Below are positions 17,459 to 59,980 of a stretch of 64,000 bases of DNA, one piece after another. Position numbers and translations under genes: made by a program. Every line of letters begins with the position of its first letter. Position 1 is the first letter of the stretch. Below the pieces are notes generated by a model. It was not told the DNA's origin. It made no database searches and saw only the letters and a list, made by a program, of their open reading frames with translations. This DNA comes from a virus (Duplodnaviria; Caudoviricetes): the IMG/VR virus record IMGVR_UViG_3300047539_000055, one strand, 5' to 3'.

Positions 17459-19204
17459 ATGGAATTCAGCCCACAATTCAAAGCATGGTTTGGAAGTTCT
17501 TTGGTTACTGACGCCGAAGATAATCCGCTAAGAGTTTATCACGGATCAAATAGATTAGAAGATATCTCAATATTTAAATCTGAATATAACAATGGATATT
17601 ACTTTACATCCGATCCAAATTATGCAGTGGAGTATTCAGGAACTACAAACATTGGTGCAAAAACGATTCCAGTATATCTTAGATTAGAACACCCGATGGA
17701 CTTCTTTGAATTTAGGGACATCGTTAGGGCAGCAAGAAAAGATGGAAGTGATCCTGTTAAAAAAACCATAAAACTTGGTTATGATGGAGTAATTACAGAT
17801 AAGGCGCATGAATTTGGTTGTCTTGATGTAAAGAATACGCCGAAAACATTTATTGTTTTCAGTCCTAATCAAATCAAATCTGCCATTGGAAATAAAGGAA
17901 CATATAATAGAGAAGACCCAAATATTACAGAATCCAAAGAATTGTTTTCAATTTTTAAAGAATCCAAAGCATTCAGAAATGATTCAATGGTAGAAAAGTA
18001 TTCCGTCAAAGAACTCAGTGAAATCCTGTTCGCAATGATGTTGACCTTACACCTTATTGGAGTTACAGAGCAATCTAAAAAATACTGCCACAATTCATTG
18101 AAATTTCCAAAATTCAATCATATTTTTTTGAGTAGCACAGATTTGGCTAATGCCATCACCACTTTGGTTCACGCAAAAGAGTACCTTGACAAACCAAATG
18201 TTGATGTTCCTGTCAATGAATTAAAAAGATATCTTCGTGGAATTATTTTAGGCACAAATACTGATCAATTTTCTCGTGCATTTTTCTTTCGTTTACAGAC
18301 GAAGCTTCGAATCAAAGATAGTTTGTTATCTACTTTGCGCCGAGAAATTGTTGATGGAAAAATACAAAAAAATAAAAATAAACTTGCAGTCCAGTTATAT
18401 CAATATCTAAGAAAATATAATAATTGTGATTTATTAGTTGTTTTGCAATCCTTGTTGGATGAATCATTAACAGAATCTAAAAAACATATTGCTTCGGAGT
18501 CCGAAATTCGTGCCTATATGGAGATTCTGAAACAAAAATATATTGAATCTGAAGGATCACTTGATGGAATGTGTTATGATGCTTGTTTGGATATGCAAAG
18601 AAAATTTCCTCAACTTCATTGGTTTAAAGGGATGGTAGAAATTTATAATGGTAAACGTTATAGTTGGGTGTCTCATAGTTGGATGGTATCTGATGATGGA
18701 ACTATATACGATCCAACAGTGAGTCAATTTAAAGATGTACCATCATATGAATTTGATGGAGACAAATGTTTGGTACAGAGAATTGATGGGAAACAGGGCA
18801 AATTATTCAAATCTTTAGAAGCAGCAAATAATTCAAAATCTATAACAGAATCTGTTAACCCTTCACAAATGATTTATCATGGAACTTTTGCTCCTCGTGC
18901 TAAACAGATTTTACAAACCAAGTTTTTAAACCCATCCTTGGCCGATACCTATGAATATGGAAAGGCAGTTTGGTTTACTTCAGACTTGGAAGATGCTTGT
19001 GAGTACGCTGGCAATGCTGGTGTTGTATTCATGATGCCAGAAGAAACTTCAAAACAATTTCGCTGTAAAAGAATTGTCTATCGTGATCCAAGCACGAAGG
19101 TAGTTGAACTCACTGTTTTAGTTAAAGAGCCGATTCCATTAAAATTGGTGAAGTATGAACGCGCCAGTGTTCTCCGCAAAACCTATGTAAGTAAATATAT
19201 TTAG
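17459..19204 (+). CDS. Multidomain (polyvalent) protein: ART-like, helical, papain/transglutaminase-like, second ART-like
   Basis: FKAWFG.S.V.D....PLRVYHG..GYYFTS; GMCYDAC..HSW..IYDPT; IYHGT..AVWFTSD...EYA. Confidence 0.65.
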   Translation: MEFSPQFKAWFGSSLVTDAEDNPLRVYHGSNRLEDISIFKSEYNNGYYFTSDPNYAVEYSGTTNIGAKTIPVYLRLEHPMDFFEFRDIVRAARKDGSDPVKKTIKLGYDGVITDKAHEFGCLDVKNTPKTFIVFSPNQIKSAIGNKGTYNREDPNITESKELFSIFKESKAFRNDSMVEKYSVKELSEILFAMMLTLHLIGVTEQSKKYCHNSLKFPKFNHIFLSSTDLANAITTLVHAKEYLDKPNVDVPVNELKRYLRGIILGTNTDQFSRAFFFRLQTKLRIKDSLLSTLRREIVDGKIQKNKNKLAVQLYQYLRKYNNCDLLVVLQSLLDESLTESKKHIASESEIRAYMEILKQKYIESEGSLDGMCYDACLDMQRKFPQLHWFKGMVEIYNGKRYSWVSHSWMVSDDGTIYDPTVSQFKDVPSYEFDGDKCLVQRIDGKQGKLFKSLEAANNSKSITESVNPSQMIYHGTFAPRAKQILQTKFLNPSLADTYEYGKAVWFTSDLEDACEYAGNAGVVFMMPEETSKQFRCKRIVYRDPSTKVVELTVLVKEPIPLKLVKYERASVLRKTYVSKYI

Positions 19205-19225: not shown

Positions 19226-19254
19226 TTGACATTCCAGATCAAAACTGATATACT
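19226..19254 (+). promoter_or_regulatory. Early sigma70-type promoter driving small-gene array, IHF-like box upstream
   Basis: TTGACA-17-TATACT; AATCAATAACTTA at 19205-19217. Confidence 0.75.
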
Positions 19255-19269
19255 CATTCTAGGTAAAAT

Positions 19270-19473
19270 ATGACCGATAAACAGTTTGTTAAAAACATTT
19301 ATCCTGACGCCAAGGCTCATACAGATTTTGGCGATAATGGTTACGTCGATTGGGCTATTTATAGTCATGCTAGAATCATATCAAAGTTTGTTCCGGAACC
19401 AACAGCAAAAATTGCGTGGAAAAATGCGGTAGCAAGAATTAACGAACAGATGATGGAAAAGTTGGAATCATGA
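19270..19473 (+). CDS. Small protein, family A, ends EKLES
   Basis: Paralog of next two; coupled stops/starts. Confidence 0.75.
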   Translation: MTDKQFVKNIYPDAKAHTDFGDNGYVDWAIYSHARIISKFVPEPTAKIAWKNAVARINEQMMEKLES

Positions 19474-19664
19474 CCGACAAAGAATTTGTTTTACGAGTTT
19501 ATCCAGAGGCTATGGCTAAAAAAGATTTCTTTACCCATGATTGGGGTATTTGGAATAATGGTTCTTTATTGTCAAAATATGCACCCGAACTAACAGAAGA
19601 TATTGCTTGGGAAAATGCGAAAAAAAGAATTAACAAAGAAATGATGAGAAAGTTGGAATCCTAA
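19470..19664 (+). CDS. Small protein, family A, ends RKLES
   Basis: MTDKEFVLRVYPEA...AW.NA..RIN. Confidence 0.75.
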   Translation: MTDKEFVLRVYPEAMAKKDFFTHDWGIWNNGSLLSKYAPELTEDIAWENAKKRINKEMMRKLES

Positions 19665-19861
19665 TGACTGCCAAAGAATTTGTTCTACGAATTTATCCAG
19701 ATGCTAAAGCCAGAAATGATAGTAATCATAATAATTGGGGTGTTTGGGACTATGACAATATCTTACTATCAAAATATGCTGTTGAAGTAACAGAAGAAAT
19801 CGCGTGGCAACACGTAGTTGATAATATCAACAACAAGATAATGAGAAAGTTGGAATCGTAA
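19664..19861 (+). CDS. Small protein, family A, ends RKLES
   Basis: MTAKEFVLRIYPDA. Confidence 0.75.
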   Translation: MTAKEFVLRIYPDAKARNDSNHNNWGVWDYDNILLSKYAVEVTEEIAWQHVVDNINNKIMRKLES

Positions 19862-20175
19862 TGAAGTGGATGCCTTTTGTAAGTCTTGTATTTTCTTTCT
19901 TTTCATTGGGAATGGCATTTTATCTTGGTAAGAAAGCAATTGTGATGCGTAGTGAACAGGTGCTTCCCATTTATGTTGGTGTTCAACTATTTATGTCATG
20001 GGTGAATGGTGTGATATTTTTTAATGATATGAAATTGTATCACCCGATTGAATTAGTCTATGTCATTGGTTTTCCTATTGCCGCCGTATATGGATATTTT
20101 CGCGTCAAGCGTAAGATTCTTGGTGATCAATTTTTAGCAAAGTTGGAGACAGAATATGATGATCCTATTTTGTAG
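19861..20175 (+). CDS. Small membrane protein, FLAKLETE near C-terminus
   Basis: About 3 hydrophobic segments. Confidence 0.65.
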   Translation: MKWMPFVSLVFSFFSLGMAFYLGKKAIVMRSEQVLPIYVGVQLFMSWVNGVIFFNDMKLYHPIELVYVIGFPIAAVYGYFRVKRKILGDQFLAKLETEYDDPIL

Positions 20176-20443
20176 TTCTCTTTTATTTTGGATTCTATGT
20201 GCGATAATGTCGTTCATGTTAGAAAGAGGTTTTGATTTGATTAATTTTCCGTTTAGTAAGCAACCAATGGAAAATCTATTTATAATGTTTATTTTCTTTG
20301 TTGGGCCGTTTGCTCTTATATCATCTATTTCTTGTGGTATAAATCGTAAAAATCTCAAAAAGGCTTTTTTAGCAAATTGGAAGCGATGGAGACACGATCA
20401 TCCAACTAAAGCTGAATGGGTGCTGAGAAAGTTTGAGTCATAA
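20156..20443 (+). CDS. Small membrane protein, ends DHPTKAEWVLRKFES
   Basis: 2 hydrophobic segments; tail shared with next gene. Confidence 0.7.
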   Translation: MMILFCSSLLFWILCAIMSFMLERGFDLINFPFSKQPMENLFIMFIFFVGPFALISSISCGINRKNLKKAFLANWKRWRHDHPTKAEWVLRKFES

Positions 20444-20444
20444 T

Positions 20445-20732
20445 ATGCTTATTGGTATCATAATTTGGAGTCTGTGTAGTATATTAGTGCTGAATCTTAT
20501 GCTTGGTGAGACAGTAGTCAGAGATGATAGTTATTTTGGCTCACTAGAGACTTTACTGATTACGACGGGGATGATGACTTTATTAGGACCACTCGGAATA
20601 ATAGTCATTTTTGTTTGTTGTTTTATTACTCATGATTGGAATTTTCATAATGGGATATATCTATTTTGGAAGAAATGGAAATATGATCATCCAACTAAAG
20701 CCGAATGGGTATTGAGAAAGTTTGAATCATGA
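20445..20732 (+). CDS. Small membrane protein, ends DHPTKAEWVLRKFES
   Basis: Paralog of previous gene. Confidence 0.7.
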   Translation: MLIGIIIWSLCSILVLNLMLGETVVRDDSYFGSLETLLITTGMMTLLGPLGIIVIFVCCFITHDWNFHNGIYLFWKKWKYDHPTKAEWVLRKFES

Positions 20733-21031
20733 ATCTAATATATTTTGTGAATATTTCCTGTTTGCTAGTGAGTGGTGGTTGGGCAATAACGAAAGTAAAA
20801 CAGGCTTTCAAAAAACTAGATTTAGAGGAATTGTGGGCAGATTCTTTTCTGTTTCTCGGCCCCATAATGTTTTTGGACGGTATAGTATGGAAATTGGCGC
20901 ATTATTCATATTCATATTATGAAGGCGTAATAATTGGAATAATACTTATGCTTTTTGTTATGCAAATAATTGCTGGAAGACTTAAGAAAAAGAGATATCA
21001 ATATGCATTTTTGGAAAAGTTGGAATCTTGA
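20729..21031 (+). CDS. Small membrane protein, ends FLEKLES
   Basis: Hydrophobic segments; ATGA coupling. Confidence 0.7.
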   Translation: MNLIYFVNISCLLVSGGWAITKVKQAFKKLDLEELWADSFLFLGPIMFLDGIVWKLAHYSYSYYEGVIIGIILMLFVMQIIAGRLKKKRYQYAFLEKLES

Positions 21032-21080
21032 GTAGTAGATGAAAATTGGTGGGAAAACAGGTTTTGAAAAGGAGCAACAA

Positions 21081-21482
21081 ATGACGTATGATTTTGGATT
21101 TAACGATGACCTTGATGATGAAGAAGTAGTGGCCGATAACCATTTCCTGATCATGTGGGATGAACTTGGGTTGGATGGCATGGTTTCCGTTGACTATTGT
21201 AAACTGGGCGACGGCGGCGATATGCTTGCCAAATTGGAAGGTGTTCAAAATACTTACGCTCAAGAAATCGGCAGAACTTTGTGTATGTTCAAACTTAGAG
21301 CGCAAGCCAACTCTCAGCGTCATTATGAAATTTATTCTCTGACCACAACTGGTGATATTACAGAGAAATTCATCAAGGATATGTTTGAAAGCAATCCTCA
21401 GAATATCGTTGACCTCATTCGTGAGAAGGGTGTACAGGTGTATTCAAATCGTGTTTCAAAGAAAAGACCAAGGATTGTGTAA
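21081..21482 (+). CDS. Conserved phage hypothetical protein (MWDELGL...LRAQANSQRHYEIY)
   Basis: AAGGAG SD before ATG 21081. Confidence 0.65.
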   Translation: MTYDFGFNDDLDDEEVVADNHFLIMWDELGLDGMVSVDYCKLGDGGDMLAKLEGVQNTYAQEIGRTLCMFKLRAQANSQRHYEIYSLTTTGDITEKFIKDMFESNPQNIVDLIREKGVQVYSNRVSKKRPRIV

Positions 21483-21724
21483 TGATAGTTCGTGACAAAT
21501 ACGGTGTGAAATTGGCTGAGAAGGATTGGATAAGGCATTGTTGGTGGGATATTGTCACTGATAAATTTTTCTATGAGGTTGTACAAATCAGAGAATTGAC
21601 TCATTATGGTAATGTATTACCCGATTCAGGAGTAAGATTATTCAGTTCAAATGATTGTGAAAGACTTCCGAAAAATGAAAAAAAGAGAGAACAATTTTTA
21701 TTCCTGAGAAAGCTTGAACAATGA
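21482..21724 (+). CDS. Small protein, family C (DKxG..L..xDW), ends RKLEQ
   Basis: Paralog of next three. Confidence 0.75.
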   Translation: MIVRDKYGVKLAEKDWIRHCWWDIVTDKFFYEVVQIRELTHYGNVLPDSGVRLFSSNDCERLPKNEKKREQFLFLRKLEQ

Positions 21725-21981
21725 CAGATAAATTCGGAACGCCATTAAAAGTCGGAGATTGGATACATTATCACTTTTGGAATGCTGTTAATGATGGAGG
21801 TTTTTATGCTTCAAAAATAACAAGGATATGGCCTACCTTTATGCATGAAAACTGTGAGATGGCGTTCTTTATTGATAATGAAGGATATGAAGTACTGCGT
21901 TATGATTACTCTTTAGAAAAACTTCCAAGTAACAAGAAAGAACGAGAGCAACTTATATTTCTCAGAAAGCTTGAACAATGA
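21721..21981 (+). CDS. Small protein, family C, ends RKLEQ
   Basis: DKFGTPLKVGDWI...LPSNKKEREQ. Confidence 0.75.
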   Translation: MTDKFGTPLKVGDWIHYHFWNAVNDGGFYASKITRIWPTFMHENCEMAFFIDNEGYEVLRYDYSLEKLPSNKKEREQLIFLRKLEQ

Positions 21982-22229
21982 TAGATATGAACGGTAAACG
22001 AGTACGAGTTGGAAGTTGGTTATTGTATCCATATTGGGATAGTAATAGTGGCCGTTACCGTGGCCGTTGTGTTGGCCAGATTACAAGCTTTTTTACAGGT
22101 GGTGCTGGATTGTCATATGCAGAAATTCGAGACAGTGCAAATCTGAGTTTTCTTGAAAATTCAGAAAGATTGCCATATCAGAAAAAGAAACGCGACGAAA
22201 TTTTGTTTCTGAAGAAGTTGGAAAGCTAA
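21978..22229 (+). CDS. Small protein, family C, ends KKLES
   Basis: DMNGKRVRVGSW. Confidence 0.75.
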   Translation: MIDMNGKRVRVGSWLLYPYWDSNSGRYRGRCVGQITSFFTGGAGLSYAEIRDSANLSFLENSERLPYQKKKRDEILFLKKLES

Positions 22230-22516
22230 TGCGATTGAAACGAAGCGACAAAAATGGAAAGAGATTGAAAATTGGCGATTGGGTATATTATCCAAAGCTA
22301 AGGCTGTTTACAAATGATTTTGTATATGATTTTTTCGTTGGACAAATTACATCTTTTGGCGAGAATTTGGGTGGATGTTATGTCATACTAACTAATGATC
22401 CCGGAAGATACATTAATTATGTTGAAAAACTCCCGAAAAATGAAAAGAAACGAGAACAGATTGTACTTTTGAAAAAGTTTGAAGGTTGCCACACCATTAT
22501 TCAGCAACCCAAATAG
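22229..22516 (+). CDS. Small protein, family C, KKFEG near end
   Basis: DKNGKRLKIGDWV...LPKNEKKREQ. Confidence 0.7.
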   Translation: MRLKRSDKNGKRLKIGDWVYYPKLRLFTNDFVYDFFVGQITSFGENLGGCYVILTNDPGRYINYVEKLPKNEKKREQIVLLKKFEGCHTIIQQPK

Positions 22517-35772: not shown

Positions 35773-35957
35773 TGACTAAACAAATCACGAAAGACAAAAA
35801 AGAGTTTTATTTGATGTTGAGTGGTTGGAGTATAGTGCGTTGTCCGAATCATAGTATTTTCTATAATTCACCAGATGGTGGTAGATGGACAACTCTTTTA
35901 GCTAGCGCTTATCGCGCATAAAAGAGAGCAGATTTGAGACAGCGAACGAAGGTATAA
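35772..35957 (+). pseudogene. TDDEK-family member 3 with premature TAA at 35919 (may still give 49-aa core)
   Basis: 3' 60 bp duplicate member 2 except CAA>TAA. Confidence 0.65.
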
Positions 35958-36136
35958 TGACTAAACTTACAAATGACGAAATGGAAATGTATCTTATGTT
36001 TTGTGGATGGCATATCAATCATAAAACATATATAGGACGTGGTATTTCTTGTGATACATATTTTCCGCCAACTGGTAATCTAGGACATTATTCTTTAGAA
36101 GATGCATTTTTAGACCAGAAGAATCGTGATGTGTAA
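35957..36136 (+). CDS. TDDEK-family small protein 4 (59 aa, below ORF-track cutoff)
   Basis: MTKLTNDEMEMYLMFCGW...LEDAF. Confidence 0.75.
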   Translation: MTKLTNDEMEMYLMFCGWHINHKTYIGRGISCDTYFPPTGNLGHYSLEDAFLDQKNRDV

Positions 36137-36305
36137 AATTACTGACGACGAAAAACGAATGTATCTAATGTTTCATGGATGGCATATGGAAGAAAATTTG
36201 CCTCGGCGCGGTGAACTGTGGGGGAACGATGAACGTAATCTTTTTTATTATTTGTTGAAAAACGCATATCTTGTAGTGAGGCTGGAAAATGGCTATACTG
36301 ACTGA
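36129..36305 (+). CDS. TDDEK-family small protein 5 (58 aa)
   Basis: MCKITDDEKRMYLMFHGW...LKNAY. Confidence 0.75.
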   Translation: MCKITDDEKRMYLMFHGWHMEENLPRRGELWGNDERNLFYYLLKNAYLVVRLENGYTD

Positions 36306-36474
36306 CGACGAAAAAAGAATGTATCTTATGTTTCACGCATGGAAAAGGCGTGAAATCACATCCATGCGGGAAGCATGGATTCGTGAAGATGAAGACAGTT
36401 TCTATTATTCGTTGGAAGATGCATATCGTTTTGTAAGACGGGGAGAATGGTTATCAAATGGCTACACCGACTAA
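36289..36474 (+). CDS. TDDEK-family small protein 6
   Basis: LTDDEKRMYLMFHAW...LEDAY. Confidence 0.75.
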   Translation: MAILTDDEKRMYLMFHAWKRREITSMREAWIREDEDSFYYSLEDAYRFVRRGEWLSNGYTD

Positions 36475-36631
36475 CGACGAAAAACGAATGTATCTGATGT
36501 TTCATGGATGGACACGCTCAAAAGGATCAATAGATGATATTTATGAAATATGGTCTAATGGTGAACGTGCCTTTTATTTTTTGAAGGATGCATATAATTG
36601 TGTAAGGGATAAAGATGGTCAAATCAACTGA
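36458..36631 (+). CDS. TDDEK-family small protein 7 (57 aa)
   Basis: PTNDEKRMYLMFHGW...LKDAY. Confidence 0.75.
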   Translation: MATPTNDEKRMYLMFHGWTRSKGSIDDIYEIWSNGERAFYFLKDAYNCVRDKDGQIN

Positions 36632-36785
36632 CGACGAAAAACGAATGTATCTAATGTTTCATGGGTGGACACATGCACAAGGATCATCTGATGATTATGA
36701 GGTATGGATTAGTTGTACAGGTGGCGCTTATTTTTTGAAGGATGCGTATAATACTGTAAGGGAAGAACATGGCCAATTTGACTAA
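36615..36785 (+). CDS. TDDEK-family small protein 8 (56 aa)
   Basis: STDDEKRMYLMFHGW...LKDAY. Confidence 0.75.
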   Translation: MVKSTDDEKRMYLMFHGWTHAQGSSDDYEVWISCTGGAYFLKDAYNTVREEHGQFD

Positions 36786-36981
36786 AGACGCAAAAGAAAT
36801 GTATTTGAAGTTGCATAATTGGACTATTGATTATGCTACCGATCCAGATATTGCTTGTTATACGCCACCTTTTATAAACTATGATGATTTTGAACAGCGC
36901 TTGATATTGACTTACAATTTGGATAAAGCGCTGGCATATCAAAGAAAGATTGATAGGTTTAGAAATGGCCAAACTAACTAA
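36769..36981 (+). CDS. TDDEK-family small protein 9
   Basis: LTKDAKEMYLKLHNW...LDKAL. Confidence 0.75.
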   Translation: MANLTKDAKEMYLKLHNWTIDYATDPDIACYTPPFINYDDFEQRLILTYNLDKALAYQRKIDRFRNGQTN

Positions 36982-37186
36982 CATCGAAAAGGAAATGTAT
37001 CTCAAACTTTTTTCAAGTTGGAAGAGTCAAGAGGCCGAGTGGGATGGAAACACCGATTCTGGACAGCCACAGTATATTGTTGGAAATATGTATTGGTGTC
37101 ATGAAGATGATGATGGGTGGTTACCTAAGTCGTGGCTTACAACTGATGAAGCTTTTGATAGACAGAGAGAGTTAGAAAAATGGTAA
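36965..37186 (+). CDS. TDDEK-family small protein 10
   Basis: LTNIEKEMYLKLFSSW...TDEAF. Confidence 0.75.
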   Translation: MAKLTNIEKEMYLKLFSSWKSQEAEWDGNTDSGQPQYIVGNMYWCHEDDDGWLPKSWLTTDEAFDRQRELEKW

Positions 37187-37392
37187 AAATAACCGATGAA
37201 GAAAAATCCGTGTATCTAATATTCTGTGGATGGAAATCTGTGATTGCAAGTTTCCGCAACGACAACTATATAGGTGGTGTTCGTTATTGGAATTTGGAGG
37301 AAGCATTTGACGTGAAGTTTCTTCCGTGGTTAACCATAGAAAAAGCTTTCCGAAAGCAGAAGAGTTGGGACAATGGAACATCAATTAAGTAA
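37180..37392 (+). CDS. TDDEK-family small protein 11
   Basis: ITDEEKSVYLIFCGW...IEKAF. Confidence 0.75.
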   Translation: MVKITDEEKSVYLIFCGWKSVIASFRNDNYIGGVRYWNLEEAFDVKFLPWLTIEKAFRKQKSWDNGTSIK

Positions 37393-37570
37393 TGACGAAA
37401 AAGAAATGTATCTAATGTTGACTGGTTGGACTACAGAAATGTATGGTAATGATCGTTGGTGGAATCCACCAATAGGATCACCAATTTTAAGAAAACTCCT
37501 ATCAACAAAACTCATTGATAATGCTGTGGGATATCAAAAGAGGGAAGATGGACTCGAATCATATAACTGA
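37373..37570 (+). CDS. TDDEK-family small protein 12
   Basis: LSNDEKEMYLMLTGW...IDNAV. Confidence 0.75.
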   Translation: MEHQLSNDEKEMYLMLTGWTTEMYGNDRWWNPPIGSPILRKLLSTKLIDNAVGYQKREDGLESYN

Positions 37571-37718
37571 TGATGAAAAGAAAATGTATATTATGCTACA
37601 TGGGTGGAGAATCATACCAAAGTATGATGGTTATAGAACAGCATATCTTCAACAAAATAATGGAACTTATAATCTTGATGAGGCATACGATGAAGTCAAA
37701 CACAAAAAAATTGACTGA
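37548..37718 (+). CDS. TDDEK-family small protein 13
   Basis: ITDDEKKMYIMLHGW...LDEAY. Confidence 0.75.
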   Translation: MDSNHITDDEKKMYIMLHGWRIIPKYDGYRTAYLQQNNGTYNLDEAYDEVKHKKID

Positions 37719-37893
37719 TGAAGAAATGGAAATGTATATGCGATTTCTTCCAGATTGGAAAAGTGTAATTGCCGATCATGATGATGTTAGATATAATTAT
37801 GTAAAAGGCTGTCGATATTGGAATAATGGGAATAGATTATTTGATTGGTATTCTTTAGCAACGGCTTTTGAATTGGCAAGGTATAAAAAATGA
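37690..37893 (+). CDS. TDDEK-family small protein 14
   Basis: LTDEEMEMYMRFLPDW...LATAF. Confidence 0.7.
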   Translation: MKSNTKKLTDEEMEMYMRFLPDWKSVIADHDDVRYNYVKGCRYWNNGNRLFDWYSLATAFELARYKK

Positions 37894-38084
37894 CAGATGA
37901 TGAAAAAGAGTTTTATCTGATGCTTTGTGGATGGGAAAGTGAGATTGCAATAAAAAACGCTTCGAAAAAATATTACATAACGGGAGTTCGTTATTGGACT
38001 ATCAATAATATGTGTCCGTGGTTATCCATAGAAAAAGCGTTTCGATATCAGAAGGAGTTAGATTGTGGAAATAACAAAAGATGA
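37890..38084 (+). CDS. TDDEK-family small protein 15
   Basis: MTDDEKEFYLMLCGW...IEKAF. Confidence 0.75.
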   Translation: MTDDEKEFYLMLCGWESEIAIKNASKKYYITGVRYWTINNMCPWLSIEKAFRYQKELDCGNNKR

Positions 38085-38292
38085 AAAGGAATTCTTTTTG
38101 ATGTTGCATGATCTTGAAAGTTGTGTTCTCACTGTTGATCCAAATAGATTTCCAGGTTATGATTCAAAATTTATTCAAGGTGAAAAGTATTGGTTGAATC
38201 CTGTTCTTGATCATACATTGGAGTTGAGATTACAAGATAGATGGCTTAGTACTGATGAAGCATATTGGTTGATGACAAATGATAAGCAATGA
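38065..38292 (+). CDS. TDDEK-family small protein 16
   Basis: ITKDEKEFFLMLHDL...TDEAY. Confidence 0.7.
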   Translation: MEITKDEKEFFLMLHDLESCVLTVDPNRFPGYDSKFIQGEKYWLNPVLDHTLELRLQDRWLSTDEAYWLMTNDKQ

Positions 38293-38461
38293 AGAAATGG
38301 AAATGTATATGATATTTTGCGGATATCGTTCGGAGCAATATAATGGTAGTATTGATTTTAAACAAGGTGGCCGCACTATTTATAAGGTAGGAGAAACTTA
38401 TTGGGAATGTGGTGATCATCCAATTCCTTGGCTACCACTACGCAAAGCTTTTGAAAAATGA
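38279..38461 (+). CDS. TDDEK-family small protein 17
   Basis: ISNEEMEMYMIFCGY...LRKAF. Confidence 0.7.
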   Translation: MISNEEMEMYMIFCGYRSEQYNGSIDFKQGGRTIYKVGETYWECGDHPIPWLPLRKAFEK

Positions 38462-38843: not shown

Positions 38844-38900
38844 AATTAAATATTTTGTTTTATAATTCAAACAATGTTGATATTTTGTATAAATAGATGT

Positions 38901-44026: not shown

Positions 44027-44311
44027 ATGATTCAAAAAGGCGACATTGTAAAAATCGGGGTTGGCAGAGCAGACGTTCCTACGGAATCCAACAAAGTTAC
44101 CCCATTTACCAACAAAAAGTGGGGCAGGAATGTTTTTGCTCGTGTCCTTTCTGTGAGTGAGTACAGGAAGAAAAGAAAAGGGCCAGCGTTTACGTGCAAT
44201 ATTCCCAACCAATGGGGGAATTGCTTGAAGGTGGTTGGCATGGGTCGCACCGATTGCTATCAGTTGGCGACGGATTCTGAAGTTGTAATGTTCAAATTGG
44301 AGCAAGAATGA
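44027..44311 (+). CDS. Small early protein ending VVMFKLEQE
   Basis: GAGGA SD; KGDIV (SH3/KOW-like start). Confidence 0.7.
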   Translation: MIQKGDIVKIGVGRADVPTESNKVTPFTNKKWGRNVFARVLSVSEYRKKRKGPAFTCNIPNQWGNCLKVVGMGRTDCYQLATDSEVVMFKLEQE

Positions 44312-44498
44312 TTCTCATTTTGGTTATGATTTCATTGCTCGTGGTTATTTGGTTACTCAGGGACGCATAAATGATTGCTTTGTTGTGGATACTTTTGATA
44401 TTTTTGTTTTTGTTTCATGAGAGCCGCCGTGGGCTTGGTTGCCTGTGGTGGCTGTTATTGTTGTTTTTGATTATTCATGGTTGCAGATAAGGAATTGT

Positions 44499-55838: not shown

Positions 55839-56159
55839 ATGACTGAGTTGACTCGCGAAGGAATTGTTGAGTTGCTGAAAAAGAGTGACAAGGCGGTTTG
55901 CCGCGCTCTTTTGGTTATCAATTCTAATCAGACCGCAGATGAGCAAATTTCCGAAACAACTACACATCTTAATGGGCGTGGTTTTCGCCCATTTCACGCC
56001 GCTATCGGCACTTCAATGGCAAATTTCTATCAGCGCAATTCGTATCTCACGCCAAAGCAGATTGCATATTGGCGCAAGACTGATTGCAAAGGAAACATGA
56101 ATATTGGATTGTATTGGAAACAGTTGGTGGAAGCTGCAAAGCAGAAAGCGAGTGTATAA
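55839..56159 (+). CDS. Conserved early hypothetical protein
   Basis: GAGGA SD; QTADEQ....T...NG.GF. Confidence 0.7.
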   Translation: MTELTREGIVELLKKSDKAVCRALLVINSNQTADEQISETTTHLNGRGFRPFHAAIGTSMANFYQRNSYLTPKQIAYWRKTDCKGNMNIGLYWKQLVEAAKQKASV

Positions 56160-56863
56160 TGAACGTTGAATTTCCGTCTATTGTCAATACTGAAAAGTAT
56201 TTGTTTGTTTTTGATTCCGAGCAATATGGAAGTTCGTCCACTGCCCCTGTGTTGCAGAATTTTTTGGTGAAGATTCGCTGTGGGGATGGATGGGGTTTTT
56301 CTTCACCGATTGCTATGCCTTTGGTTGGCGAATATCTCGCGTCATTGGCTACAGTGATGTTGGAAAACGATGAACTGTGTAAGGCATTGTATTACACACT
56401 CAATTGCAGATTCAGTGACGAAGATATAACTTTCGCAAGCAAAGTCGTGTATGGCAAAAAGAAGAAATACTATTCACGACATTTTTCTCGCGTTTCAACT
56501 GTATCTATGAAACAATACGATACACGCTGGAAAGAAGTAAACGAGTATATGGATGGTTCTCCAAATAGCATCATAAATATTTTGACGGGTGATTATCCCC
56601 GCTCGACTTTGGAACAGTATTTTTTGGCCGAAAAGGTTCGTACTTGGCTGTTTGCAGATCGTAAGCGTTCGCGTAAGTTTAGTATGGATGGTGCAGCCGA
56701 ATATGTAGGTTGGACACATAATTTTACACAAGAACGGGCAATTGAAAAAGCAATGTCAGCTTGTAAGTCGGCATTGACAATTTACAGAGAGAAGCTGGCC
56801 TTCAAGGAACATCTTGAAGATTTTACCAGAAACGCAATGGTAGTCAAACTGGAACAGGAATAA
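56159..56863 (+). CDS. Hypothetical protein ending MVVKLEQE
   Basis: TAATG coupling. Confidence 0.65.
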   Translation: MNVEFPSIVNTEKYLFVFDSEQYGSSSTAPVLQNFLVKIRCGDGWGFSSPIAMPLVGEYLASLATVMLENDELCKALYYTLNCRFSDEDITFASKVVYGKKKKYYSRHFSRVSTVSMKQYDTRWKEVNEYMDGSPNSIINILTGDYPRSTLEQYFLAEKVRTWLFADRKRSRKFSMDGAAEYVGWTHNFTQERAIEKAMSACKSALTIYREKLAFKEHLEDFTRNAMVVKLEQE

Positions 56864-56879
56864 GAAAGAGGAAAATGAT

Positions 56880-57083
56880 ATGATGGGAGCATCTGGTTAC
56901 AAGGCAAAGAAGGATTTGAAGGCGAGTGTTGGAAAGCCTTTGGGTTATGTTGAAACTTCACTGTTTGGCACTGAGTATAAGCCAAATGGAAAATTCTGTG
57001 TGGTTGGCCCCGATGCGTATAATGATCGGCGCTGGTATGCAGAAGTCACAATGGAAAATGGGTTGATAAAAAAAGTTACCTAA
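56880..57083 (+). CDS. Conserved small phage protein
   Basis: Y..KK.LK..VGK.L.Y.ETS.FG.EY. Confidence 0.65.
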   Translation: MMGASGYKAKKDLKASVGKPLGYVETSLFGTEYKPNGKFCVVGPDAYNDRRWYAEVTMENGLIKKVT

Positions 57084-57319
57084 TGAAAAATTGGCCTACT
57101 TTAAAGGCGGTCTTAGGAGCATTGGCAATAGCGTTTATAATACTATTGCCAATGATCCATTTGTTGACCATTCCAGCAATGCCGTGGATATTGGTTTTCA
57201 AAATTGATGGTATTGGTTGTGGCGCTATGGCTCCAATTCTTATTATATTTGGTTGGATGCAAGATCGCGAATATCGCAGACACATTGGACGAGAGATGCT
57301 TAGAAAGTTTGAGTCTTAG
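57083..57319 (+). CDS. Small membrane protein ending EMLRKFES
   Basis: Two hydrophobic segments plus tag. Confidence 0.65.
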   Translation: MKNWPTLKAVLGALAIAFIILLPMIHLLTIPAMPWILVFKIDGIGCGAMAPILIIFGWMQDREYRRHIGREMLRKFES

Positions 57320-57472
57320 ATAAACCATTCCCCAATATATTTTGAGGGATAGTAATAGGCATTGCGTTGCTTTGGCAATAGATTCATGGCAAAGCATAGA
57401 CCAATTGTGGCGAAGCCAACAAGAAACGCGAATTTTGCTGAAGTGTTCATAAGGGTATTTATCGGAGAACTG

Positions 57473-57718
57473 ATGATTGATATGTTTGGTAAAGAATTGG
57501 AGATTGGCGATTATGTTATGTATTACGAACGAGTGCCATATACGAATCCAAGAAGAAAATTTTTGGCAGTAATCAGCAAGTATGCATATGAAAGCGATTA
57601 TACTGCATTGATCAGTTTTTATCCAACACGGCAGAGTGCCAATTTAGCTGTAAAATCTTCGGAAATTGAAAAATTATTGCCCGAACAAGCGATGTTATTG
57701 ATGTTGGAGTATGTATGA
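57473..57718 (+). CDS. Small protein, DxxG..I.GD family
   Basis: GGAG SD; ends EQAMLLMLEYV. Confidence 0.7.
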   Translation: MIDMFGKELEIGDYVMYYERVPYTNPRRKFLAVISKYAYESDYTALISFYPTRQSANLAVKSSEIEKLLPEQAMLLMLEYV

Positions 57719-57936
57719 AAACCAAATGGATTCCAAAAATCGGTGATTATGTTTGGTTTAATTTTAAAGCCACTCCAAAATATTGGCTTGGATGGGTCGG
57801 AGATATTTATTATGGAAACAATGTAAAATTTGTATATCATTGGGAAGGTCATATACAAGATAAGCAAGCACCTCTGTTGTATCTATCACCAGCCACAAAA
57901 GAGGAAGTTGTATTGTGGATGTTGGAGAACGTATGA
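57715..57936 (+). CDS. Small protein (WIPKIGDYV), ends EEVVLWMLENV
   Basis: Coupled, GGAG SD. Confidence 0.7.
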   Translation: MKTKWIPKIGDYVWFNFKATPKYWLGWVGDIYYGNNVKFVYHWEGHIQDKQAPLLYLSPATKEEVVLWMLENV

Positions 57937-58301
57937 AAACCAAATGGATTCCAAAAGTTGGCGATTATGTTTTCTATAATTTTCCTGGGGATACGCCACA
58001 TATTGGAGGAAGCGTTCCTTTGGAAGTTGGAGCATTGATGAGAGACAAAAACGGAGTGGAAATTACCGAAGGTTCTTTAGTATTGTTTGAAACATTTATG
58101 GATAATGATGAACGCTGGATTTCAAAAATAATCTGTTTTGATAAGGGAAAGTATTATTCCAAAGAAGGTTATCCTGAAGATTATGATGTAGTAGTAATGT
58201 GGGAGAATTGGCGAAGACTGCCATCCAACGTGGAAGTTGTTACCGAAGATAAAGCGTTGTTACTGGCGTTTGAAGACAGCCGAGTGAGGTTGAAATTTTG
58301 A
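57933..58301 (+). CDS. Fusion of truncated WIPKVGDYV copy with a DKNG-family gene (internal start 58038)
   Basis: 5' end duplicates previous gene; internal GGAG+ATG. Confidence 0.6.
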   Translation: MKTKWIPKVGDYVFYNFPGDTPHIGGSVPLEVGALMRDKNGVEITEGSLVLFETFMDNDERWISKIICFDKGKYYSKEGYPEDYDVVVMWENWRRLPSNVEVVTEDKALLLAFEDSRVRLKF

Positions 58302-58321
58302 AGAAAAATGACGCTACAGTA

Positions 58322-58595
58322 ATGATTGATAAAAATGGCAGACGAGTCTATAAAAATAGTTTGGCTAAATATCACGCCGCTATATATGATGAAAATGGTG
58401 CGCTTAATATTCCTCAAATTTGGATTTCTCATATTCCAAAATATATCATATGATCGTGGTAAGGGTTCGGAGATTACTTTGCGTATGTATGATGATTGGA
58501 TGAAAAATCCATATGAAATTGAAGTAATTGACGACACTCCAGAAAGTATAATGTTGGCAATATTTGAAGGCGCGATTTTGAAAGGATATAAATGA
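58322..58595 (+). pseudogene. Frameshifted DKNG-family gene
   Basis: MIDKNGRRVYKNS...HI stops at 58453; +1 frame continues QNISY...KNPYEIEVI. Confidence 0.65.
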
Positions 58596-58852
58596 AAGTT
58601 AAATATCACAAAATTCATAAAATGAAGATGCAGGATAAAAATGGCAAACGGATTTATGAAAAAAGTTTTGTCAAGTATGCGACAGGCTGGGGTGCGATAG
58701 GCTCAAGTTTTAACGCAGCGCAAATATCTCGTATTGAAGAAACTACATTTCAAATTAAATTTTCTTTCAATGGTGGTAGATGGAATAAAAATCCTTATGA
58801 GGTTGAAGTAATTACAAAAGGAGAAGCGGTTTTATTAATGTTTGAAAGGTGA
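58592..58852 (+). CDS. DKNG-family small protein
   Basis: DKNGKRIYE...KNPYEVEVITKGEAVLLMFER. Confidence 0.7.
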   Translation: MKVKYHKIHKMKMQDKNGKRIYEKSFVKYATGWGAIGSSFNAAQISRIEETTFQIKFSFNGGRWNKNPYEVEVITKGEAVLLMFER

Positions 58853-58856
58853 TGTC

Positions 58857-59171
58857 ATGGAAGAATGGACTTTAAAAGACAATTTTACACGAATGATTGA
58901 CAAAAATGGAAAGACGATCCATGAAGATAGTTTGATGAAATATCTTGCGTATCCTTTGCCTCTAAACGAGACAGGCAACATGCCACAAACTTTTTGTATT
59001 GCCAGAGCGTCAGATATTCTACACTATCACACATCAATTGTGTTTGTTTTTGATAATATGTGGCACAAGAATCCATGTGAGGTTGAAGTTGTAACAGAAG
59101 ACGAAGCAATATTGGAAGCGTTCAAGGGCAACGTAAGGTTAAAATTTGAAAGGAAAACAAAATGTATATAG
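58857..59171 (+). CDS. DKNG-family small protein
   Basis: DKNGKTIHE...KNPCEVEVVTEDEAILEAFK. Confidence 0.7.
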   Translation: MEEWTLKDNFTRMIDKNGKTIHEDSLMKYLAYPLPLNETGNMPQTFCIARASDILHYHTSIVFVFDNMWHKNPCEVEVVTEDEAILEAFKGNVRLKFERKTKCI

Positions 59172-59195
59172 TTGAAAACAAACGACTTGTTTTAT

Positions 59196-59224
59196 TTGAC
59201 TTTTTGGTTTGAATTTGGTATACT
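59196..59224 (+). promoter_or_regulatory. Early promoter
   Basis: TTGACT-17-TATACT. Confidence 0.8.
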
Positions 59225-59252
59225 ATACTTGTACTCAAGAAAGGGAAACCCT

Positions 59253-59708
59253 ATGACAGATGATAGAATTTATGTAATCGTTCCAGAAACAGTTCAGGTA
59301 ACCATTCCTGGCAAGTGGGATTTTCCAAATGGAGTCAATGCACCTGCCGAGCAGTTGCCTGACACCGTGGAATCATATTCACTGGTGCCTGGTAGACTTA
59401 TTGCGCAAGGCGTTCATATTGGTCGCAAGATCGGTGCTTGGTTGGCTCAGCGTGAGATTCCTTATGAAGATGTTACTACCATTGTGTTGAGTGTTCGCAA
59501 CACAAAGGAACTGCGTAAGGTTTCCACTGAAATGTCAGTTGCGCTTTCGCTCCATGCACTCAATGTTGGTTATCAGGAATTTCACGATACCAATCTTGAG
59601 TTCTATGGAACTGATGCGACTGTACATACTATTACCGCTGTCGGCCCACTGTCTCCAGAAGTTCGGGAGAAGCTTGAAGATTCCATGGGTCATTTGGAGT
59701 TATACTAA
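59253..59708 (+). CDS. Pth2-like peptidyl-tRNA hydrolase
   Basis: PGRLIAQGVH, TIVLSV....EL, FHD, T.TAVGP, GHL.LY. Confidence 0.7.
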   Translation: MTDDRIYVIVPETVQVTIPGKWDFPNGVNAPAEQLPDTVESYSLVPGRLIAQGVHIGRKIGAWLAQREIPYEDVTTIVLSVRNTKELRKVSTEMSVALSLHALNVGYQEFHDTNLEFYGTDATVHTITAVGPLSPEVREKLEDSMGHLELY

Positions 59709-59980
59709 TGACCAGTACAAAAGATGAGCGAGTAGCGAAGGCAAAGGTATTTTTGCATACTTTGGTTGGTGACCAGTTGAGTTATCGAGCAGTGTATTAT
59801 AGAAGACCGTCAACTTTGCCAAAAAATTATAATTATCTTATGTCTGAATGGAATATCATAAACGATGTAATAATACGGATTCATGAAAAGAAAGATGTTT
59901 CCATTCAACTTTTATTTGCAATGGAAGAAATGGAAAATAAATATCGCGATCCGTTGATGCTTGCAAAGTTGATGAACTAA
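59708..59980 (+). CDS. Hypothetical protein ending LMLAKLMN
   Basis: TAATG coupling. Confidence 0.55.
   Translation: MTSTKDERVAKAKVFLHTLVGDQLSYRAVYYRRPSTLPKNYNYLMSEWNIINDVIIRIHEKKDVSIQLLFAMEEMENKYRDPLMLAKLMN

Follow-up and report, generated by a model that had tools for sequence, protein, structure and literature searches.

Encapsulin cargo-loading peptides and microcompartment encapsulation peptides are short terminal helices or peptides that are present on unrelated proteins of one system. Translationally coupled gene junctions are likewise established, in which stop and start codons overlap as ATGA or TAATG and the Shine-Dalgarno (SD) sequence lies inside the upstream gene. In phage T4, gp43, gp33, and gp55 carry highly similar and interchangeable C-terminal motifs that dock onto the sliding clamp (PMC2988020). 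Here, we describe a C-terminal tail, typified by K-L-E-S, in the DNA of an uncultured jumbo phage (IMG/VR record IMGVR_UViG_3300047539_000055), of which a stretch of 64,000 nucleotides (nt), hereafter the window, was analysed; the window is part of a 353,395-bp metagenomic contig with ~37% G+C. The tail is concentrated at 19270-22516, where 12 open reading frames (ORFs), all on the plus strand, form an operon of small proteins. Like the T4 clamp motifs, KLES is a short C-terminal motif on unrelated proteins of a T4-type phage, and by analogy it might be likened to the cargo-addressing peptides, as a short terminal amphipathic helix common to otherwise unrelated proteins. We show that KLES belongs to a conserved peptide tail of unrelated protein families, which in gene arrays doubles as the ribosome-binding region of the next gene.

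The enrichment of this tail at protein ends is real and far beyond chance. Among the 125 proteins called in the window, K[LF]E[SQTG] occurs 17 times, of which 12 lie at most one residue from the C-terminus, two within ten residues, and three internally; only ~0.03 terminal occurrences are expected from amino-acid frequencies. The corresponding DNA pattern, K-[L/F]-E-x-stop, is found 14 times on the plus strand of the window, and neither on the minus strand nor in reversed-pattern controls. An earlier note on this DNA, made from the sequence alone, had named enrichment at C-termini as a check, and an unbiased scan of C-terminal 3-mers in the window indeed ranks LES (15 against 0.13 expected) and KLE (16 against 0.21 expected) highest. 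Since paralogs are not independent observations, p-values given here overstate significance. The consensus of the tail is hydrophobic-Leu-x-Lys-Leu/Phe-Glu, followed by one or two residues. The description of the operon in the same note, namely 12 mostly coupled genes behind an early promoter, agrees with the coordinates, the strand, and a near-consensus promoter, the terminal sequences that it listed are exact (Table 1), and the singleton has its LAKLEG only internally, as claimed. The recurrence that it reported for the genes starting at 44027, 56159, 57083, and 59708 holds for MFKLEQE, VVKLEQE, and LRKFES, and is weak for LAKLMN, which is without Glu. The Ser codons do vary (TCA three times, TCC, TCG, TCT, and AGC); what had been missed is that Lys is AAG in all operon tags read.

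The tail closes at least four unrelated families, which are a double-stranded RNA-binding domain (dsRBD)-like family named YPDA, a Tudor/SH3-like barrel family (DKxG), small membrane proteins, and a 234-residue family. The earlier claim that the carriers are unrelated is thereby borne out, in that YPDA, SH3-like, and membrane folds differ and profile comparison joins the families through the tail only: hhalign links YPDA with the membrane family only via the last 19 columns (probability 75%), and YPDA with the SH3-like family only via 12 columns (probability 4%). In the predicted models, a short amphipathic α-helix forms the C-terminus, and the tag makes up its last turn. The AlphaFold model of YPDA has a predicted local distance difference test score (pLDDT) of 94.5 and an α1-β1-β2-β3-α2 topology (helix 3-10, strands 15-18 and 25-29, helix 43-63). 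In VIA-align, dsRBD folds top its list of matches (Z 6.0, root-mean-square deviation (rmsd) 2.6, 62 residues aligned), and the topology is like that of ADAR1 dsRBD3 (PDB 2mdr) over the whole model, without sequence similarity; Foldseek of the same model against PDB returned nothing at E ≤ 0.001. In dsRBDs, a basic RNA-binding motif sits at the start of helix 2. YPDA is without this motif, and its family consensus at that position is E-x-x-A-W-x-x-A. The DKxG model (pLDDT 87.9) is a five-stranded barrel with a C-terminal helix at 72-85, which resembles chromo-barrel, Tudor, and PWWP domains (Z 7.7-7.4). Its best matches are the MRG701/MRG15 chromo barrels (Z 7.7) and Tudor (Z 7.5, rmsd 1.5), and the topology is again alike over the whole model (MRG15 2f5k, 6if4), without sequence similarity. 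The dsRBD and barrel Z values of these models lie in a range where a shared arrangement alone may account for them, and no function is transferable. The membrane carriers have one to three hydrophobic segments (two in most), then a basic cytoplasmic stretch that ends in the tail. Pfam and PHROGs gave no informative family for any of the tag carriers, and YPDA has no Pfam or PHROG name, even though its profile finds 1,874 cluster representatives in 1.84 billion public proteins.

The YPDA-type domain is also found as two to four fused repeats in longer proteins (P0005, P0010, P0011, and P0025), apparently from higher-GC sources. None of these ends in KLES, and one has a C-terminal membrane region. 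Because the fused multi-domain versions do without KLES, the tail is not needed for the YPDA fold. On the same contig upstream of the window (L014:1-6124), about 25 more tandem YPDA-type units are present with eight exact copies of AAGTTGGAATCATGA, and one unit is replaced by a 71-residue protein with an eIF-1a (S1-like) Pfam match. In a close relative (L017:263-2259), there are eight SH3-like genes, compared to four at 21482-22516 of the window; the two loci differ by whole gene units, whose ends are conserved and whose middles vary.

Portability of the tail across families extends to several related phages, and the tail-bearing phages are a clade of uncultured jumbo phages that is distantly related to PA5oct. 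The most extensive data come from a 360-kb relative (G001), whose whole record was analysed with 636 called ORFs. In this genome, 70 of the 636 ORFs (about 11%) end in hydrophobic-hydrophobic-x-x-[LFM]-E-x(1-2), K[LF]E occurs 34 times in the last three registers versus 46 times in the other 106,000 positions, and KLE is observed at 30 C-termini against 0.78 expected (p = 5e-37). Its carriers include YPDA, about twenty SH3-like proteins (typically ...EEAMLYKLENA), and an array of four membrane proteins, and further an 80-residue family ending in ...YVLxMLEW[ST], two cysteine-rich proteins of 250 residues, and a PD-(D/E)XK nuclease. The 234-residue family also carries the tail there, in conserved synteny with 56159-59708 of the window. 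When K-[L/F]-E-x-stop is counted per record against the reversed-pattern control, the excess is evident in four relatives, with 53 versus 14 in G001, 26 versus 2 in G002, 12 versus 3 in G003, and 8 versus 1 in G004. There is no excess in PA5oct (2 versus 5) or in the Klebsiella phage RaK2 (10 versus 20), and L-E-N-K-stop was not found in RaK2 either. In two partial genomes of a sister lineage (G005 and G006), the top C-terminal 3-mers are LSE and KLS, and [KR]-L-S-E is the ending of YPDA proteins as well as of a small, unrelated family (...ALLIMKLSE); in most SH3-like proteins of G005, L-E is retained. The Ser codons of the K-L-S-E tails are TCC, TCT, TCA, and AGT, most of their junctions are without GGA (one AAG TTG AGT tail forms it), and several of the junctions do not overlap.

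Residues of the tail are kept across changed codons, without GGA, and without a coupled gene, which upholds the selection at the protein level that the earlier note had proposed. YPDA genes in the IMG/VR relatives form arrays of ten or more copies, nearly all ending in MLRKLES, and their tail codons are diverse: Lys is encoded by AAA (nine times) or AAG (11 times), Leu by CTG, TTA, TTG, or CTT, and Arg by AGA, AGG, CGG, or CGC. Among 141 single-domain YPDA representatives clustered at 50% identity, Lys is conserved in 77%, Leu/Phe in 93%, and the two preceding hydrophobic residues in about 70%, and exactly one residue lies between Glu and the stop in 101 of the 122 representatives with a hydrophobic-Glu end. 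In Glu-using lineages, Glu is kept in 56 of 68 tails whose Leu codon ends in G and in 23 of 31 tails without such a codon (p = 0.42); this similar retention indicates that Glu is independent of GGA. The homolog of the 57083-57319 membrane protein in the 360-kb relative encodes FLRKLES via the codons CGG-AAA-CTG. In the 234-residue family, homologs of about 48% identity all keep K-L-E, encoded by codons of the background type (AAA, CTT), and the gene that follows has its own SD sequence in the spacer at three of four loci. Gene order around this family is conserved among window positions 56159-57319 and L020, L021, L022, and L031, the distant 360-kb relative included; the order is the 234-residue tail protein, sometimes a small membrane protein, a 67-residue protein (phrog_37117), which is highly conserved, and tail-bearing membrane or SH3-like genes.

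The same codons have a second role, in that the tag also serves as ribosome-binding region for the gene that follows. Codon skew was assessed in the window plus 7.1 kb upstream of the same genome, which holds the additional YPDA units. The tag Lys is AAG in 24 of 29 cases (83%), compared to 26% elsewhere in the same genes (p = 3e-9), and tag Leu codons end in G in 21 of 23 (p = 3e-6), a skew towards TTG; where Lys is followed by TT elsewhere in the window, AAG is used in just 23%. Relatives drift likewise towards AGG, AAG, CTG, and GAG. The ordinary ribosome sites of the phage are AAGGA/GGAG at 5-10 nt upstream of ATG, and TTG-GAA and CTG-GAG spell GGA(G), with GGA formed in most tags by TTG-GAA/GAG. 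The next ATG lies at most 13 nt from the Glu codon in 50 of 63 tail genes. Moreover, of six proteins that extend at least three residues past the motif, four, including that of 19861-20175, have the next ATG 1-7 nt after the Glu codon. It is this skew, together with the motif staying 1-7 nt before the next ATG in those four, that identifies the tag as the ribosome-binding region of its neighbour. Most of the tail genes stand in tandem arrays with tight overlaps, where these 12-15 nt have taken on the additional function of ribosome-binding and coupling region for the next gene, which explains both the skew (to AAG/TTG, or AGG, CTG, and GAG) and the fixed distance to ATG.

Tag junctions are like those of ordinary translational coupling in their overlapping stop and start codons, in the GGA/GGAG core made by the Leu-Glu codons, and in the skewed codon choice. 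They are unlike them in that one peptide is fixed across unrelated families and is kept without an SD core or a coupled gene. Ordinary coupling therefore accounts for the DNA layer only. In the 360-kb relative, the 70 tail genes comprise 45 with and 25 without coupling to a downstream gene, and the tail is absent from 111 of 152 coupled small genes (73%); because a third of the tail genes are uncoupled and most coupled small genes are tail-less, the ribosome-binding role does not explain the tail away. In the window, a tandem array of about 12 small overlapping paralogs at 35957-38461, with N-termini of M-T/A-K-L/I-T-N/D-D-E, is tightly coupled and yet without the KLE tail, so that coupling alone does not create the tail. 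A related DNA element is seen in the 360-kb relative, where the spacer that separates a DnaB-like helicase gene from the start of the membrane array contains GAGAAAGTTGGAATC directly before ATG. In this locus (L029, positions 128500-132000 of the relative, reverse strand; local 1459-1485), the helicase TAA is followed by eight in-frame codons, FVRKLES-stop, the last bases of which overlap the ATG of the first membrane-array gene. It could be a fossil junction, a ribosome-binding cassette, or a read-through extension.

What selects the peptide is the question on which the readings part. Our preferred reading, which we hold tentatively and at somewhat below even chance, is that the tail is a portable recognition helix read by one partner. 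One phage or host protein would read the common C-terminal helix, and the tail would thereby connect many small, rapidly evolving domains to one machine or one fate, whether docking, localisation, or turnover. The appearance of the same K-L-S-E variant on two unrelated families in one lineage is just what a shared external constraint would predict. The docking or targeting hub with modular cargo, as the earlier note had it, stands in so far as the tail is portable across families, whereas no hub, docking, or targeting was found. Several points weigh against a recognition helix. No reader of the tail was found, the gene calls are our own simple longest-ORF calls, and the K-L-S-E covariation comes from two partial genomes and may go back to one evolutionary event. 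For both soluble families, an integral helix of the domain rather than a floppy appendage is confidently predicted at the tail: the pLDDT is about 90 or more in the tail region of YPDA, and in the SH3-like model it averages 83 over the last residues, with the same helix spanning a block of mean 93. Its hydrophobic residues may therefore be buried and unavailable for docking. In addition, much of the SH3-like family is without the Lys, with tails that read MLE, LLE, or YLLE, and 2-10 extra residues after the motif are tolerated in some proteins. The core common to all families is L-x-x-L-E-x, which resembles a generic helix end with N, S, or G as C-cap.

The integral helix and the short common core also favour a structural explanation, which we consider unlikely but the most serious of the alternatives, in which the amphipathic helix packs against the body of its own protein or the surface of the membrane, with the ribosome site overlaid and no common reader. 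The polar positions would be K, R, and E because purine-rich codons suit a coupled start, and the likeness among families would come from convergence or an old shared module. Apart from the high confidence of the helix in both folded families and the mere L-x-x-L-E-x core, the chromo-barrel and PWWP matches cover the C-terminal helix too, Glu is mostly followed by S, N, or G, all of which cap a helix C-terminus well, and tails in the 360-kb relative are often preceded by a capping-box-like pattern, S/T-x-E-E. Among hydrophobic residues, GGA can be formed across a codon boundary only by Leu, Met, or Val, through codons ending in TG, with Glu or Asp next to them, and the tag skew is in exactly that direction. 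However, the Lys is of an exposed type and is as conserved, at the percentage given above, as the core positions, which packing leaves unexplained, as it does the tail-less fused YPDA domains and the joint switch of two unrelated families to K-L-S-E in one lineage. Furthermore, the membrane family and the 234-residue protein keep the residues without ribosome-site use, and similarly AT-rich jumbo phages have no such tail. A recombination-junction cassette is considerably less probable than packing. By this account, the tail and the stop/start overlap serve as DNA homology for duplication, loss, and swapping of gene units, and unrelated genes gain the tail in the process. The whole-unit copy change between close relatives, with conserved ends and variable cores, and the eight exact copies of AAGTTGGAATCATGA among the upstream YPDA units fit this account, the in-frame FVRKLES after the helicase stop and the internal LAKLEG of the singleton look like fossil junctions, and the membrane-family tail matches the whole last YPDA helix over the columns joined by hhalign. 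However, only 12-15 nt of DNA are shared, with different codons from family to family and from genome to genome, and so short a stretch would not suffice for homologous exchange. The last residue is family-specific (S in YPDA, Q or N in SH3-like proteins), and conservation of the tail extends over deep divergence and to single-copy genes that lie outside arrays.

A pure nucleotide constraint, with the motif as a by-product of an SD or re-initiation element, is largely excluded and is the least probable of all the explanations considered. The earlier note had itself set such a constraint against its own reading, and part of it stood: codon use in the tag is skewed, the motif of extended tails keeps its position relative to the next ATG, the downstream ATG is close in most tail genes, and the same DNA (GAGAAAGTTGGAATC) occurs in the non-coding spacer before an ATG of the 360-kb relative. 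As an explanation of the whole it is insufficient, given the uncoupled tail genes and the tail-less coupled genes. KFE and CTT-GAA tails have no GG, most K-L-S-E tails are without an SD-like core, Glu conservation is independent of GGA, and relatives change the codons and keep the residues. The tail also persists in front of genes with an SD of their own and where no gene follows, and other coupled genes of the window encode their SD with different peptides (HGR, RGK, LGRD, and KRRLA).

The recognition-helix reading has a bolder extension, to which we give a low probability, that the carriers form a library of well over fifty fast-diversifying early mini-binders with one adaptor helix and a single reader, a modular, antibody-like system of host takeover or counter-defence. 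If so, whatever the binders capture would be handed to one hub, such as a protease, a sequestering assembly, or a site on the membrane. More generally, if one partner reads the tail, it would provide a handle on roughly a tenth of the genes in a whole clade of uncultured jumbo phages, none of which has a known function, and the hub would reveal the purpose of the large hypervariable arrays. If there is no partner, the tail is a clean and quantified case of dual coding, with the same codons specifying a conserved peptide end as well as the ribosome site of the next gene. In addition, the work documents array dynamics in phage genomes and defines two large unannotated families, the dsRBD-like and Tudor-like phage mini-proteins, which are blank in current annotation pipelines.

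With respect to the described systems, the T4 clamp motif, which is the nearest precedent among T4-type phages, is hydrophobic and acidic on a flexible linker, whereas KLES is part of a predicted folded helix, and its carriers are dozens of small early proteins rather than replication or transcription factors. The family-B DNA polymerase of the 360-kb relative (Pfam DNA_pol_B, L056:11879-14542) ends in ...KKANTFDDFFS, a tail like the T4/RB69-type clamp-binding one. Since this polymerase ends in TFDDFFS, KLES is not a T4-type clamp motif, and this identity was rejected; judged by the polymerase sequence, the clade probably has another C-terminal motif system besides that of KLES. The window itself contains no polymerase gene. 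Compared to the carriers of cargo-addressing peptides, those of KLES are tiny hypervariable domains and early-promoter membrane proteins, and the tail has no disordered linker. No shell or compartment gene was noticed in the Pfam scan of the window proteins, although no systematic search for such genes was made. C-terminal proteolysis tags of the ssrA/LAA type have non-polar last residues. The KLES tails end in Glu plus Ser, Gln, Asn, Glu, or Lys, and are thus not of this type. Three other candidates were dropped: a prohead-protease site because P3 is Lys and not hydrophobic (by comparison with T4 gp21), a MinD-like membrane-targeting helix because the net charge of the tail is neutral to negative, and the β-clamp QLxLF motif because a resemblance is found only in the SH3-like subfamily of the operon. 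In the literature, no paper that describes such a tail was found.

The window holds T4-type replication genes identified by Pfam scan, namely an NAD ligase, a ribonucleotide reductase, an RNA ligase, and a clamp-loader ATPase. Among cultured phages, the PA5oct-like Pseudomonas jumbo phages are closest to this phage (51.5% identity in the clamp loader), and its ligase is <30% identical to any cultured counterpart. Against cultured phages, blastn with the operon DNA and tblastn with the YPDA, SH3-like, and 234-residue proteins gave no match. In IMG/VR, a search with the neighbouring ADP-ribosyltransferase gave no relative, one with alignment A1 yielded no conserved stretch that could be used, and one with alignment A5 matched patterns and yet no relative; a word-based homolog search with one YPDA protein matched only the query itself. 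The operon promoter is one of five sites of the perfect class in the window, where 0.18 are expected. Nine of the 11 operon junctions overlap, by ATGA, TAATG, or, at 20156, by 20 nt, and the remaining two are gaps of 1 and 7 nt. The coordinates of the operon and of the tail sites elsewhere in the window are listed in Table 1.

Table 1. Coordinates of the operon and of other tail-bearing genes in the window
Feature	Position	Strand	Remarks
Sigma-70-type early promoter of operon	19226..19254	+	TTGACA-17-TATACT, TG before -10 box; 11 of 12 positions match
YPDA/dsRBD-like paralog 1	19270..19473	+	ends MEKLES; ATGA overlap with next gene
YPDA/dsRBD-like paralog 2	19470..19664	+	ends MRKLES; the protein folded; tag is predicted last turn of helix 43-63
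YPDA/dsRBD-like paralog 3	19664..19861	+	ends MRKLES
Membrane protein 1	19861..20175	+	LAKLETE plus 6 residues; KLE 8 residues before end and 7 nt upstream of next ATG
Membrane protein 2	20156..20443	+	two hydrophobic segments; cytoplasmic tail ends VLRKFES
Membrane protein 3	20445..20732	+	ATG start, alternative TTG start at 20433; ends VLRKFES
Membrane protein 4	20729..21031	+	ends FLEKLES
Singleton, 147 residues	21039..21482	+	no terminal tag; internal MLAKLEG; weak match to phrog_21451
SH3/Tudor-like paralog 1	21482..21724	+	ends FLRKLEQ
SH3/Tudor-like paralog 2	21721..21981	+	ends FLRKLEQ; the protein folded; barrel, then helix 72-85 (predicted)
SH3/Tudor-like paralog 3	21978..22229	+	ends FLKKLES; Ser codon AGC
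SH3/Tudor-like paralog 4, last operon gene	22229..22516	+	LKKFEG plus 9 residues; same form in relative L017
Small soluble protein	44027..44311	+	ends VMFKLEQE; stop overlaps ATG of a hydrophobic mini-ORF of 20 codons
234-residue protein, fourth family	56159..56863	+	ends AMVVKLEQE; next gene's own SD 16 nt downstream
Membrane protein	57083..57319	+	ends EMLRKFES; no gene coupled downstream
Second array, six SH3/Tudor-like paralogs	57386..59171	+	looser tail L-x-M-[LF]-E-x(1-2); syntenic with the 360-kb relative
90-residue protein	59708..59980	+	ends MLAKLMN; weak case, no Glu

The looser tails of the second SH3/Tudor-like array read LLMLEYV, LWMLENV, and LLMFER, and three more have extensions. 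Behind the gene at 44027-44311, two tiny hydrophobic ORFs of 20 and 39 codons (44308-44490) are chained to it by ATGA and TAAATG overlaps. Immediately upstream of the operon, at 17459-19204, lies the gene for a 581-residue protein that has two ADP-ribosyltransferase domains, an ART-PolyVal domain at residues 18-148 and a PARP-like domain at 461-518. Elsewhere in the window, the genes starting at 38874, 39888, 48977, and 50527 have a TATAAT-like -10 box 6-8 nt before the ATG and no visible SD, an arrangement which suggests that their transcripts may be leaderless or nearly so.

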